IMG/VR virus record: IMGVR_UViG_3300034157_000065
Span: 128,831-192,830 of that record
Length of the DNA: 64,000 nt
From: a virus
Taxonomy: Duplodnaviria > Caudoviricetes
Direction: 5' to 3' (one strand)
Shown one piece after another: positions 35,303 through 52,017 of this stretch (its first letter is position 1; each line of letters begins with the position of its first letter). A program made the translations under genes and the position numbers. The notes below the pieces were generated by a model, which made no database searches, was not told the DNA's origin, and was given only the letters and a program-made list of their open reading frames with translations.

Positions 35303-35357
35303 AGACACATCAAGACGAGAACAAGAACCCTAACGAAAACAACCAGTTATACTAATC

Positions 35358-35665
35358 AAGTGCCCGAGGTGAACTACCGATGGAGTAAGTAATCAAATTA
35401 GAGAATGAGACTATTTAATATGATGATACTAGCTTTAAAATAAACATTAACCACTTGATAATTAGTTAAGTGCTCGAGGTGAACTAGGAATGCCGTAATA
35501 CACTAAAATTAGATAATTAAATTGATGATATAATATTAGAGTATAACAAACACATAAACATTCACTTTAAAATTGTTTAAAATGAAGTGCTCGGAGGTGA
35601 GCTGCCCATGCCGTAGTCAACAACTATTAGATAATTAAACTTATTATAGATGATGATATTAGAAT
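35358..35665 (+). repeat. Three ~110-120-nt imperfect repeats starting at 35358, 35468 and 35585
   Basis: AAGTGCYCG(G)AGGTGARCT-N4-ATG-NNG-TAR...ATTAGAKAAT...ATAYTAG. Confidence 0.9.
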
Positions 35666-35704
35666 GGAAATGAATCAAGCGGTGCGGTTTTTTTAAGTGG
35701 CAAT

Positions 35705-35766
35705 TTAACGCCCTCCACCAACTGATTAAAGCAACTTAACGCCCTCCACCAACTGATTAAAGCAAC
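35705..35766 (+). repeat. Perfect 31-bp tandem repeat x2
   Basis: TTAACGCCCTCCACCAACTGATTAAAGCAAC at 35705 and 35736. Confidence 0.95.
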
Positions 35767-35770
35767 ACGA

Positions 35771-35799
35771 AAAAGACCTAGAAATAGGTCTTTTTTTTT
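35771..35799 (+). terminator. Intrinsic terminator
   Basis: AAAAGACCTA-GAAA-TAGGTC-T9 (sister of 36604-36630). Confidence 0.9.
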
Positions 35800-38309: not shown

Positions 38310-38361
38310 TTAAAACTAAGACCTTTTTCGAAAGGTCTTTTTTATTTTCAAGGAATTGAAT

Positions 38362-38763
38362 ATGAAAAAAATTACTGTATTTCGTTTGGAAAATATCAAT
38401 AAACTCGGGCCATTCAGAGGTGGTCATAGGAATGAAGCTAACCTATTGAAAGGTCATTTCGGCATTCGTAATTGTCTGATTGACTGCGAAATCATGAAGC
38501 CCCGGATGTTTAAAAAATTTGCTAAGAATGGTTGGCGGTGTGCTTGGAGTGTGGAAGAGGACTTCGATAACTGGCTTAATGACCATGCTGCTTATTTTGA
38601 ATCATTAGGCTATTTTAAAGTGGCTTATGATGTGTCTCAATACAAACTGTGTGCTGACCAAAAGCTTTTTTATTTTGATGAAAAAATAGATGATTATGTC
38701 TATTCTGATGTTGTAGGTCATCAAGTTTTTTTTAATCCTGAAAATGCTGTTAAGTTGAAGTAG
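38362..38763 (+). CDS. Hypothetical protein
   Basis: AAGGA RBS; VFRLE...GPF motif. Confidence 0.7.
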   Translation: MKKITVFRLENINKLGPFRGGHRNEANLLKGHFGIRNCLIDCEIMKPRMFKKFAKNGWRCAWSVEEDFDNWLNDHAAYFESLGYFKVAYDVSQYKLCADQKLFYFDEKIDDYVYSDVVGHQVFFNPENAVKLK

Positions 38764-38829: not shown

Positions 38830-38976
38830 ATGATTTTGAATTTCTTTCTTCATGCGAAACATCATCGCACATTTAAATTCATTCTCGCTTTTATTGGAAC
38901 GTTTACACTAATTGCTTGTTCATTATTATTTTTGACACTTATACTGGAAATCATCTTAGTCTTTCTTCCTTCTTAA
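38830..38976 (+). CDS. Small single-TM protein, 48 aa; not in ORF track
   Basis: GGAGAG RBS; hydrophobic C-half; TTGACA promoter upstream. Confidence 0.55.
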   Translation: MILNFFLHAKHHRTFKFILAFIGTFTLIACSLLFLTLILEIILVFLPS

Positions 38977-38979
38977 CGC

Positions 38980-39127
38980 TTGACCTACTAGTTTGTTTTC
39001 TCTATACTATTGGTGTTGAAAACAAATATATATAAGGAGGACTTATGAGTGGAGATGCGTCTTAAATCATAGCTACATTTATACTTGTTAACTGGCACTG
39101 AATGGTTTTCCATTCGGTGTTTTTCTT
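38980..39127 (+). promoter_or_regulatory. frr leader: promoter, uORF MSGDAS* (39045-39065) and terminator hairpin (39095-39127)
   Basis: TTGACC-N17-TATACT; TAAGGAGG-N4-ATG; GCACTGAATGG-TTTT-CCATTCGGTGT-TTTTCTT. Confidence 0.65.
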
Positions 39128-39153
39128 ATTTGTTTAATTTAAAGGAACTTATC

Positions 39154-48810: not shown

Positions 48811-49629
48811 ATGTTAGAACGCATATTTAAAGCAAAAGATGATTTCGATAAGGCCACTCTGTTAAAAGTTTCTGTTGATGATTATAAACCTAAGATCACT
48901 TTCTTTACAGGATCTGGCATTTCTCAGGAGAGCGGTTTAGAAACATTCAGGGCGGATGATGGATTGTGGAGTAATCATCGTGTGGATGAAGTTGCAACGG
49001 CTCACGCTCTGCAAAAAGACTTTAAAAAGGTTAACAACTTTTTTAATGATAGACGTAAAGAAGTCATGGCCGCTCAACCTAATCGTTCTCATGAGATATT
49101 GAAAGAACTTGAAAAGTATTTCCATGTCGTTGTTGTCACTCAGAACGTTGATGACTTGCATGAGCGTGCTGGCAGTTCGTCTATTTATCATTTGCATGGA
49201 GAAATCATGCGTTCAAGACCAGTTGGCAATGCCAAAGTATTCTATGACCAAAAGAAAGACATTAAACTGGGTGATAAGTGTATGTTGACCAAGGCTCAAA
49301 TTAGACCGCATATTGTTTTGTTTGATGAAATGTTAGATGACAGTATTCTGTCTGACGCCAGAAGGCATATTAGAGAGTCTGATGTGTTTGTCGTGGTCGG
49401 TAGCAGTCTTCAAGTTGAACCCGCCGCTTCATTGGTGGTAGAAGGCTTTGGTCTGCGAGATTTTATATTGGTTGACCCAAGCACCGTCTTTATGAAATAC
49501 AATGCTAATTATGTTCATGTGAAAGAAAAAGCGTCTGTTGGTTTGGAAATGATGTTACCTCAGTTGATTATTAAGGCTGACCAGTTGCAAACTCAGTTTA
49601 AAGAAAACAAAGAAAGATTGAAAGCATAG
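48811..49629 (+). CDS. cobB: Sir2-family NAD-dependent protein deacylase (CobB-like)
   Basis: TGSGISQESGLETFR, TQNVDDLHERAG, HLHG, RPHIVLFDE, VGSSLQVEPAA. Confidence 0.9.
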   Translation: MLERIFKAKDDFDKATLLKVSVDDYKPKITFFTGSGISQESGLETFRADDGLWSNHRVDEVATAHALQKDFKKVNNFFNDRRKEVMAAQPNRSHEILKELEKYFHVVVVTQNVDDLHERAGSSSIYHLHGEIMRSRPVGNAKVFYDQKKDIKLGDKCMLTKAQIRPHIVLFDEMLDDSILSDARRHIRESDVFVVVGSSLQVEPAASLVVEGFGLRDFILVDPSTVFMKYNANYVHVKEKASVGLEMMLPQLIIKADQLQTQFKENKERLKA

Positions 49630-49683
49630 TGCATTATGTGCTATACTTGCGGTTATCTATATTGATTCCTTGAAGGATTTAAA

Positions 49684-50463
49684 ATGACAAGCATTTATGA
49701 AAAACTTTTAACCTTACATAATAATGAAGCTCTCGATGACACATCGAATGCCTTTGTTGTTTCAAATTTAATAGGGTTATTGAAAGCTTCATGTGGCATT
49801 GATTTGTCGGAGCAAGCAGATCCTTTTGTTTATAGCGATTTCAGTGTTATGAATGATGGTTATTTTGAATTATCTTATAATTTCAAATATGGCATTGCTT
49901 ATCTATCCACAATTCCAGTAGAACATAACTTAAAGGTGTCGTTTTCTTTTTCTAATGAGATTCAAGAGACTTTATATAAGAATACTGTTTGTTATTTAGA
50001 TGTCGATTATAATATGACATTCGAAAAATCATTATTGAACAGGGTTTTTGAATTCTCAAAAACAATACTTAATCAATCTAAACTAAGCTCTGACTGGTCT
50101 GTGTTACTTGTAAATACCACCGTTAATAGCGACTTAACCACTGTTAACCATTTTTCATATCAAAACAATGCTTCCTATTCGAACTCATCAGATGATATAG
50201 AAGACTTAATGAATCATGGATTACCGGCTTGTTATATGAATTATGTTAAAGAGTTTGATGAACTATTCTTTACTTTTTTAAAATTTCAATCAACTAAACC
50301 ACACGTATTTTATGAAGTATTCCCAGAATATCCAAGTTATCTTGATATTATATCGTCCATTGACTATCTCATTAAAAATTTAGAAATGTTCTCTCAACAA
50401 TACAGTGATGATAAGATATTCCTTAAAAGTAAAATAGCATTAATTGAAATGAGGCTTATTTAA
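49684..50463 (+). CDS. Paralog family B, member 12
   Basis: FPEYPSY; ends SKIALIEMRLI. Confidence 0.85.
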   Translation: MTSIYEKLLTLHNNEALDDTSNAFVVSNLIGLLKASCGIDLSEQADPFVYSDFSVMNDGYFELSYNFKYGIAYLSTIPVEHNLKVSFSFSNEIQETLYKNTVCYLDVDYNMTFEKSLLNRVFEFSKTILNQSKLSSDWSVLLVNTTVNSDLTTVNHFSYQNNASYSNSSDDIEDLMNHGLPACYMNYVKEFDELFFTFLKFQSTKPHVFYEVFPEYPSYLDIISSIDYLIKNLEMFSQQYSDDKIFLKSKIALIEMRLI

Positions 50464-50464
50464 C

Positions 50465-51274
50465 ATGGTTACTATTTATGAAGAGTTTCTTAAAAGAAAA
50501 TCAACCAAAAGATTAGGTAAAGAATTGACTTCAATTATGAATGAGAAGTTAACTCAACTTTTAAAGGATACCTGTAACATTGATTTAAGCGGAACAGATA
50601 GCCCCTTTTCACAGTGGCACTTTATTGATTTACATGATCTTCATCCACACCCTAGATTTACCGTTTTTAATGATGGTGTCATGGATGTTAATTTTCATTT
50701 CAAAAATGGTTCGGCTACGATTATGCTCTATCCTAAAAGAAAAGTGTTAACGGTTGCTTTTCATTTTAATAAGCTCGGTTGTGATTTAATGTTTCCCTAT
50801 GATTCAAAATCCTGTTTTGTTACTGTCGATCATGACATGAACTTTATAGAAGCCCAGTTTAGAATAAATTTTTGTTTATTTAAATCAACTATAGATAAAA
50901 CCGATTCTAGTCGAACATCCAGTATGGTGTCTATTCAAGTTAATCATGACAACCAAGGAGATGTTAAAACACAGTTTATTTATGGCAATAATTTATATGC
51001 TACTTTGTTAAAATACCTTTCTGTACATGGATTAAGTCCAGCATTCTTTAACTCAGATGAGTCGTTTAATCTTATTCTTTCTAGATTTATGAAAGTAAAT
51101 ACTGAACACCCTGATATGTTTTACGATGAGTTTAAAGAGTACATCAGTTATCAAGAACTCATGAGTTCGGTTAATTCAATGGTTTATTTTTTAAATATGT
51201 TTGCTGAGCAATATAATAATGATTTATATTTATTAACGTCACGATTGATGTTAATTGAAATGAGGAATATTTAA
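50465..51274 (+). CDS. Paralog family B, member 13
   Basis: VDHDMNFIEAQF; ends SRLMLIEMRNI. Confidence 0.85.
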   Translation: MVTIYEEFLKRKSTKRLGKELTSIMNEKLTQLLKDTCNIDLSGTDSPFSQWHFIDLHDLHPHPRFTVFNDGVMDVNFHFKNGSATIMLYPKRKVLTVAFHFNKLGCDLMFPYDSKSCFVTVDHDMNFIEAQFRINFCLFKSTIDKTDSSRTSSMVSIQVNHDNQGDVKTQFIYGNNLYATLLKYLSVHGLSPAFFNSDESFNLILSRFMKVNTEHPDMFYDEFKEYISYQELMSSVNSMVYFLNMFAEQYNNDLYLLTSRLMLIEMRNI

Positions 51275-52017
51275 TGAACACCATTCATGATTCATTGATG
51301 AAATTACAATACTTGGATAACCTTGATATTGGTTCATTATTTTATCCAAAATTTATTTTTTTACTCAAACAAGTATTTGACATTGATTTGACTAATGAAA
51401 CCAATCCATTTCAGGAAGTTTCTCAAATGATTGGTGATAATATTGATATTTGCTATCTATTTAAATATGGCAGCATTCTTGTATCCACTCACAAAGAAAA
51501 CACTGATATTAATGTATATGTCACTATTACTGATAGTAGTCTTAGTGATAAAATGCCCTACAAATCTACATCTTGCAGTTTAAAACTTGATCATAACATG
51601 AATTTTATACAGGCATCCTTTGATATTAGTCTGGAATTTACACGCTCATACAATAATGAGTATAGTCTACTACAAATCAAGACTGTATTAAATCAATCAT
51701 CGCGTATTGTTAAAACATTTACTTATTCGAACAAAACAATGTATTCAGTTTCAAAAGATTTGAGATCTTTTGGACTTAGTTCCAACTTTTTTACAGTCAA
51801 TAAAGAATTTGATGATTGCTTAATCAACTTCTTAACGTGCTGTTCAGAGACACCAAAACAATTCTATGATGAATTTCCAGAATATCCTAACTATGATAAG
51901 TTGATATCAACGGTGGAAGGCACTGTACAATTATTGTCTATCTTTAACAAACAATATACAGATGACAAGGATTTATTGAAATCACGATTGTTATTGACTG
52001 CCATGTGTTTGATTTGA
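51274..52017 (+). CDS. Paralog family B, member 14
   Basis: LDHNMNFIQASF, FPEYPNY; ends SRLLLTAMCLI. Confidence 0.85.
   Translation: MNTIHDSLMKLQYLDNLDIGSLFYPKFIFLLKQVFDIDLTNETNPFQEVSQMIGDNIDICYLFKYGSILVSTHKENTDINVYVTITDSSLSDKMPYKSTSCSLKLDHNMNFIQASFDISLEFTRSYNNEYSLLQIKTVLNQSSRIVKTFTYSNKTMYSVSKDLRSFGLSSNFFTVNKEFDDCLINFLTCCSETPKQFYDEFPEYPNYDKLISTVEGTVQLLSIFNKQYTDDKDLLKSRLLLTAMCLI

Follow-up and report, generated by a model that had tools for sequence, protein, structure and literature searches.

The frr gene considered here encodes a ribosome recycling factor (RRF) and lies in a 64-kb stretch of DNA, hereafter the window, which forms the last part of a 192.8-kb IMG/VR record. IMG/VR classes this record as a provirus that is 59% complete by estimate. 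The GC content is 31–39%, and most of the window proteins lack matches to known families. Among 10 window proteins compared with PHROGs, a cation efflux protein was the sole one to be named, and no Pfam matches to Gp23, HK97-capsid or Terminase_6N were found in the 192.8-kb piece. A TrpRS-like gene is located 4 kb upstream of the frr leader. The frr locus of close relatives (L008, L009, and L022) is carried on metagenome contigs of 1.28 and 1.86 Mb, and the "provirus" pieces of about 180 kb excised by IMG/VR contrast with these megabase-sized contigs. The replicon may be a giant phage, an integrated element, or something else; RRF genes are already known in huge phages (PMC7162821).

The frr product is a full-length RRF. 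It matches PF01765 (E = 5e-53) and RRFs in the PDB (E about 1e-46), including E. coli RRF (1EK8) over residues 3–183, and all the residues that are invariant across the aligned RRFs are present in it. The gene is preceded by a leader composed of a sigma-70-type promoter, a six-codon upstream open reading frame (uORF) with its own Shine–Dalgarno (SD) sequence, and an intrinsic terminator (Table 1). A first-pass annotation made from the nucleotide sequence had described this arrangement, and its elements were recovered in our analysis: the promoter TTGACC-N17-TATACT and the hairpin with a U tract were read in the sequence and were also listed by a pattern scan, the hairpin being paired in relatives as well, while the uORF and the ribosome-binding site and ATG of frr were read as described, and the identity of frr was established by PF01765.

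Table 1. Features of the frr leader and the frr gene in window coordinates, with the nucleotide identity between two clades of relatives (A and B, see text)
Feature	Coordinates	Strand	Basis	Identity, clade A vs B
Sigma-70-type promoter: TTGACC (38980–38985), 17-nt spacer, TATACT (39003–39008)	38980..39008	+	Sequence; pattern scan (10 of 12)	
uORF SD sequence AAGGAGG, 4 nt before ATG	39034..39040	+	Sequence	0.95
Six-codon uORF ATG AGT GGA GAT GCG TCT TAA (MSGDAS-stop), TAA at 39063–39065	39045..39065	+	Sequence, relatives	
uORF ATG				1.0
uORF codons 4–6 plus TAA				0.98
TCATAG (TCATAA in the other clade), one base past the uORF stop	39067..39072	+	TCATA identical in all relatives	1.0 (TCATA)
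A/T-rich spacer from uORF stop to terminator stem	39066..39093	+	27–29 nt in relatives	
Intrinsic terminator: stem 39094–39105 paired with 39110–39121, loop TTTT 39106–39109, T tract 39120–39133	39094..39133	+	Pattern scan, alignment	
Hairpin arms				0.88 and 0.86
T tract				0.98
frr SD sequence AAAGGAA	39141..39147	+	Sequence; AAAGGA identical in all relatives	1.0
frr, ribosome recycling factor, 184 aa	39154..39708	+	Pfam PF01765, PDB RRF matches	

Transcription is predicted from the promoter to start near 39015. The uORF is bounded by an in-frame TAA at 39033–39035, so that no alternative start is available to it. Its SD sequence, AAGGAGG, occurs in three copies on both strands of the 192.8-kb record, and one of the other two precedes a real gene, again at a distance of 4 nt; the leader as a whole is single-copy in the record. 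The window hairpin (39094–39121) has 12 pairs counting G–U, and the T tract extends to about 39133; the hairpin energy is −11.8 to −15.6 kcal/mol. As had been claimed, there is no obvious promoter between the hairpin and frr: the pattern scan listed no plus-strand promoter-like site between 39121 and 39154, and in relatives the distance from the hairpin end to the frr ATG is 24–33 nt (24 nt in L019). Because frr has its own SD sequence but no promoter after the hairpin, we infer that its mRNA would be produced solely through terminator read-through.

Two other parts of the window drew our attention. Directly after the frr stop (39711–40150), a near-consensus promoter (TTGACT, 17 nt, TATAAT) is followed by about 400 nt of higher GC content that is free of ORFs and ends with a terminator near 40122–40150. 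This stretch has no Rfam match and a fold z-score of just −1.8, and it is possibly an unclassified non-coding RNA. In relatives, too, about 500 nt separate frr from the gene that follows. The frr unit is followed in the window by about 15 tandem genes of 245–272 aa (40204–52017), and no Pfam family was found for the two that were tested. Upstream of frr, a promoter-to-terminator unit at 35309–35799 contains three repeats, each with GAGGTGA and a 2-codon ORF, and then two copies of AACGCCCTCCACCAA, which contains the anti-SD-like CCUCC. Related repeats at L016:540–800 carry 3-codon ORFs. Both sets of repeats could be SD/anti-SD decoy RNAs or minigenes, and the nearness of the 35309–35799 repeats to frr may be either meaningful or incidental.

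The RRF has 16 close relatives with 82–96% identity and one with 67% identity, after which the next matches are cellular RRFs at about 50%, mostly from Pseudomonadales. We fetched the DNA around 14 of the RRF relatives for comparison. The leader layout is kept at all 13 fetched loci whose RRF is at least 82% identical, and these loci come from other samples. They form two clades, A (the window type) and B, between which the four-fold degenerate sites of frr differ by 56–63%, near saturation. The identity of the leader linkers between the clades is 0.39–0.50 (5′ leader, 0.39; SD to ATG, 0.44; spacer after TCATA, 0.39; T tract to SD, 0.39), which matches the neutral level. The leader is more than a chance arrangement, since 13 relatives retain its layout even though their linkers are no more alike than neutral sequence. 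The hairpin is 99.2% paired across 11 sequences, with two compensatory pairs and variable loops. The best promoter-like site is at the same position in all 11 relatives scored, 55–56 nt from the −35 element to GGAGG and always with a 17-nt spacer; its hexamers vary in at least five combinations (TTGACC/TATAAT, TTGTGA/TATAAT, TTGATG/TATACT, TTGCAA/TATTAT, and TTGTAA/TATTAT).

These comparisons bear on the reading in which the hairpin simply ends transcription of the upstream genes, and the tiny ORF and promoter-like site occurred by chance in AT-rich DNA. The window itself lends something to this reading, as no terminator lies between the upstream genes (38356–38763 and 38830–38976) and the leader, so that their transcripts end at the hairpin too, and promoter-like sites are barely commoner than in shuffled sequence (32 vs 25.4). 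However, the promoter, SD sequence, ATG, peptide, stop, and spacing are all kept among relatives with neutral linkers. The upstream neighbor, which in the window and in most of clade B is a membrane ORF of 48 aa, is a different gene in L002 and L021, which nevertheless keep the leader, and L031 carries a strong terminator of its own immediately before the leader promoter. From the L031 terminator and the other upstream genes of L002 and L021, it follows that the promoter–uORF–terminator–frr unit is autonomous and travels as one. The comparative sequence data thus contradict pure coincidence, which we regard as very improbable.

The first-pass annotation had proposed to look for the leader upstream of other frr genes, and the outcome was divided: the same leader is found in the 13 relatives, whereas none is found at L011, the relative with 67% RRF identity, or in Sinorhizobium phage Phosso. 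In L011, frr is placed behind a plain promoter, and in Phosso it lacks a comparable leader. The L011 stretch from promoter to ATG weakly resembles the window stretch from promoter to uORF ATG, which hints that the leader may have arisen by insertion at an old frr start; the resemblance is in AT-rich DNA, and we do not regard this origin as established. At L011:3040–3900, frr adjoins an extended region of non-coding DNA that contains tRNA-like sequences as well as structured segments of higher GC content.

We also searched more widely for copies of the leader with a degenerate pattern consisting of the SD sequence plus M-S-[GS]-D-A-S-stop. The pattern retrieved three already-known relatives and no others in IMG/VR, nothing in 185,579 prokaryote genomes, and only the 1.86-Mb contig in JGI metagenomes. 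An RRF profile search of IMG/VR added nothing usable, and 17 records with an RRF are present in the GenBank phage collection, many of which look like host contamination. By these searches, the leader appears to be confined to one small clade of uncultivated elements.

The uORF bears a coding signature. In the window and the 13 relatives, it always consists of six codons plus TAA and encodes M-[S/G]-[G/S]-D-A-S. Position 2 is Ser (AGT or TCT, so that both Ser codon families are used) or Gly (GGT), and position 3 is GGA, GGC, AGC, or AGT; codons 2–3 are neutral in nucleotide identity (0.44), yet they encode Ser or Gly exclusively. At position 5, GCG has changed to GCT twice independently, once per clade, and at position 6, TCT has changed to TCG once. 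All three substitutions in codons 4–6 are synonymous in frame 0 but missense in each of the two alternative frames, for which the chance probability is roughly estimated at 2%. Given the constant length, the changes silent in frame 0, and the strong SD sequence at gene-like spacing, we conclude from the sequence comparison that the uORF frame is under selection as a coding frame. We consider it likely that the leader consists of a real uORF, predicted to be translated, and a terminator that gates frr.

A second mini-ORF (ATG CGT CTT AAA TCA TAG, 39055–39072) is nested in the +1 frame and overlaps the uORF end in all relatives. Through its stop, TAG at 39070–39072, the succession of a Ser codon and a stop recurs at a distance of 7 nt (TCT TAA N TCA TAR), TCATAG in the +1 frame being a Ser codon and then a stop. 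The base directly after the uORF TAA is variable (A, C, or T), and the TCATA that follows is invariant. As the selected frame, the mini-ORF was rejected: all three substitutions are non-silent in it (R to L twice and L to R once), and it lacks an SD sequence in clade B although it is present in every relative. It is therefore probably not selected as a peptide, as far as the substitution pattern can tell.

We then considered how translation of the uORF could influence the terminator. The distance from the uORF stop to the stem is 27–29 nt in 11 aligned relatives and, judged by eye, in three more. For comparison, the 57 ordinary gene terminators analyzed in the genome have a median distance of 16 nt, and 8 of them have a distance of at least 27 nt. 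A ribosome at the uORF TAA would have its front edge about 18 nt away from the stem. In E. coli, a terminator near a stop codon is repressed by the ribosome, and its efficiency rises with distance and is maximal beyond about 30 bp (PMC4824070). According to these distance data, a ribosome at the TAA would leave the hairpin free, and the default state would be termination. The leader shares with attenuators a promoter upstream of the leader with none between terminator and gene, as well as an intrinsic terminator between the ORF and the gene, but it has neither an antiterminator nor a stop close enough for occlusion. RNAalifold on 11 leaders showed the terminator helix alone and no conserved antiterminator, and folds of the individual sequences before the 3′ arm emerges gave weak pairings that differ by lineage, with none conserved. 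Several candidate devices were rejected: an 8-bp helix in the window between the 5′ end of the transcript, UUGGUGUU, and the 5′ arm, which L002 has lost and the other clade lacks; a UAUG–CAUA pairing around the uORF, which is just 4 bp long in one clade and never varies; a pairing between the SD sequence and the U tract, which is weak and rich in G–U; and a start codon in the spacer as a relay, since an ATG is found in the majority of clade B spacers and is missing from L030 and from clade A. With no antiterminator and a stop out of reach of the stem, the uORF would affect the terminator solely if its ribosome travels beyond the stop. In all 11 aligned sequences, continued in-frame translation after the TAA would enter the stem or end at most 11 nt before it.

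The uORF need not affect the terminator, however. The leader may be a fixed, unregulated throttle in which a strong promoter and a constant read-through fraction yield a low RRF level, with the uORF shielding the short transcript, guarding hairpin folding from upstream RNA, or giving a function to the terminated RNA of about 113 nt. About 12 other intrinsic terminators in the record lie within 40 nt upstream of the next gene start, leaving no room for a promoter, and usually 1–27 nt after the preceding stop codon; translation-coupled or factor-dependent read-through may thus be a general expression strategy of the element. A throttle of this kind is consistent with these 12 terminators, with the fruitless search for an antiterminator, with the presence of other SD-led tiny ORFs in a non-coding transcript of the same window, and with the resemblance of the uORF and its terminator to an ordinary gene and terminator, the distance being in the upper tail (8 of 57 at 27 nt or more). 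On the other hand, a throttle could do without a translated uORF whose SD sequence is among the strongest of the genome, without a conserved peptide, and without a spacing held to 27–29 nt; a weaker promoter would do the same, and L011 expresses frr from a plain promoter. We regard this explanation as rather unlikely.

As a sensor of ribosome recycling, which is what the first-pass annotation had proposed, the leader would work as follows. The transcript would start near 39015 from the sigma-70-type promoter, and the very strong SD sequence would load a ribosome onto the six-codon uORF. By default, the ribosome would finish at the TAA, the hairpin would form, and transcription would stop. If the ribosome is not cleared after peptide release, it would slide or read on in frame into the 5′ arm, so that the hairpin would be blocked from forming and RNA polymerase would proceed into frr. 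Since RRF, with EF-G, clears post-termination ribosomes, frr output would rise when recycling is short and fall when it is ample. When RRF is depleted, 70S ribosomes that have completed termination slide into 3′ UTRs (PMC7538156), and without RRF, ribosomes have been reported to continue in frame with UAA (PMC9955659). The mechanism fits the 27–29 nt between stop and stem, the lack of a conserved antiterminator, and these published movements under RRF depletion, and it is physically coherent. The Kaji paper further describes that uORFs of fewer than 5 codons terminate abnormally (PMC9955659), which fits the fixed length of six codons. We tentatively favor recycling as the sensed signal, with RRF feedback as the best single model, and hold it to be possible rather than probable. 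A more specific version, in which the leader is a natural recycling sensor whose D-A-S-UAA-N-UCAUA context is tuned for a strong RRF dependence of the ribosome, is somewhat doubtful.

Several observations count against the recycling model. The timing is tight: the terminator is about 50–85 nt downstream of the uORF start, and we identified no site at which RNA polymerase would pause. Li et al. observed efficient termination in the initial 100 bp of E. coli ORFs, since ribosomes lag behind the polymerase there (PMC4824070), and according to Saito et al., sliding proceeds over time by diffusion (PMC7538156), which may be too slow for a co-transcriptional decision. L011 and phage Phosso have frr without the leader. 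Leaky terminators before genes are, given the roughly 12 others, a general habit of the element. In addition, the model requires no specific peptide and leaves the conserved D-A-S-stop and TCATA unexplained.

The conserved peptide and stop context are what a sensor of a signal other than recycling would account for. Here, M-x-x-D-A-S with UAA and UCAUA would slow or block release, or would favor read-through, hopping, or re-initiation, and the fate of the ribosome would set terminator read-through; candidate triggers are a small molecule, an inhibitor of translation, the activity of release factors, and a factor of phage or host origin. The amino acids are conserved though codons 2–3 are neutral in nucleotides (0.44), codons 4–6 change silently only, TCATA is invariant despite the variable base next to the stop, and six-residue arrest peptides that act at a stop are known, namely MsrDL (MYLIFM; PMC10314930) and mammalian MAGDIS (PMC7038982). 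Nevertheless, a ribosome arrested exactly at the TAA would end about 18 nt before the stem and no alternative pairing was found, so that the terminator would stay intact; the Ile5 of MAGDIS is critical (I5L abolishes stalling), whereas position 5 is Ala here; and there is no inducer to which we can point. A nascent-peptide or stop-context sensor is unlikely in our judgment.

Our literature search found no attenuation or self-sensing loop described for frr or RRF, in agreement, within the limits of the literature covered, with the earlier statement that no frr autoregulation of this type was known. E. coli frr has been described solely as part of several transcriptional contexts. Factors known to sense their own translation step on their own mRNA include RF2, IF3, and several ARE ABC-F proteins. 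If the recycling model is true, the leader would constitute an RRF autoregulatory loop comparable to the RF2 frameshift and IF3 start-codon loops, the first such loop for RRF, and would suggest that a giant phage-like element doses RRF rather than simply adding RRF to the cell. It would also offer a compact, portable reporter (about 150 nt) of ribosome recycling capacity in living cells, and could show the fate of the un-recycled bacterial ribosome on mRNA, which is disputed between the Buskirk/Green and Kaji laboratories (PMC7538156 and PMC9955659). If the leader is merely a fixed throttle, it represents ordinary phage operon design.

The combination of a leader ORF and an intrinsic terminator is a well-known kind of device, from the classical attenuators of which the present leader departs in having no antiterminator and a stop out of reach of the stem. 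Rfam gave no match in the window at the gathering threshold, and for 38950–39200 (E up to 10), the best scores were 12.6–17.9 bits against cut-offs of 35–70. Unlike trpL-type leaders, MS[GS]DAS contains no regulatory codon run, and the leader has one conserved helix and no competing 1:2, 2:3, and 3:4 hairpins. In the occlusion attenuators of the E. coli pyrBI leader, which is also cited in PMC4824070, and of rph-pyrE, the reading frame extends as far as the terminator or into it, and UTP-dependent pausing of the polymerase serves as the signal. The proposed model resembles them in that a single terminator hairpin would be blocked by the ribosome following RNA polymerase, with no alternative RNA structure, but here the stop codon precedes the stem by a good distance, and we found no pause signal. 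The prfB gene for RF2 is autoregulated through a programmed +1 frameshift at an in-frame UGA inside the coding sequence. As in prfB, a translation factor gene would be controlled by the factor's own step on its own mRNA; prfB, however, has no terminator or separate uORF, and no slippery site is present here. The whiB7/wblC attenuator of Actinobacteria has a longer uORF, alternative RNA structures, and a transcription factor gene. It is similar to the proposed frr sensor in that a leader uORF and an intrinsic terminator report the translation state, and differs in that the uORF here is shorter, the gene is frr, and the organisms are others.

Two known six-residue peptides are closer in size. 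MAGDIS, encoded by a uORF in the mRNA for mammalian AdoMet decarboxylase, exerts polyamine-responsive translational control at the stop codon of that uORF (PMC7038982). MSGDAS shares M1, G3, D4, and S6 with it; the combination of Asp4 and Ile5 that characterizes MAGDIS is lacking, as position 5 is Ala in 14 of 14 sequences, and the resemblance may be due to chance. In the streptococcal mefA/msrD system, the msrDL hexapeptide stalls at UAA and gates an intrinsic terminator, with feedback by MsrD (Fostier et al. 2023, PMC10314930), so that the recycling model has a precedent of its general kind. The peptides of the two leaders are unrelated (MYLIFM vs MS[GS]DAS), the gene here is frr and not that of an ABC-F protein, and there is no known drug inducer. 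A ribosome stalled at the msrDL stop covers the 5′ half of the terminator hairpin, which does not apply to the frr leader, where the stem begins 27–29 nt past the stop and is out of the ribosome's reach. The two systems nevertheless share a six-codon leader ending in UAA, a Rho-independent terminator, and a gene for a ribosome-acting factor, and in the proposed model, as in msrDL, the activity of the factor on the leader ribosome would feed back on its own expression.
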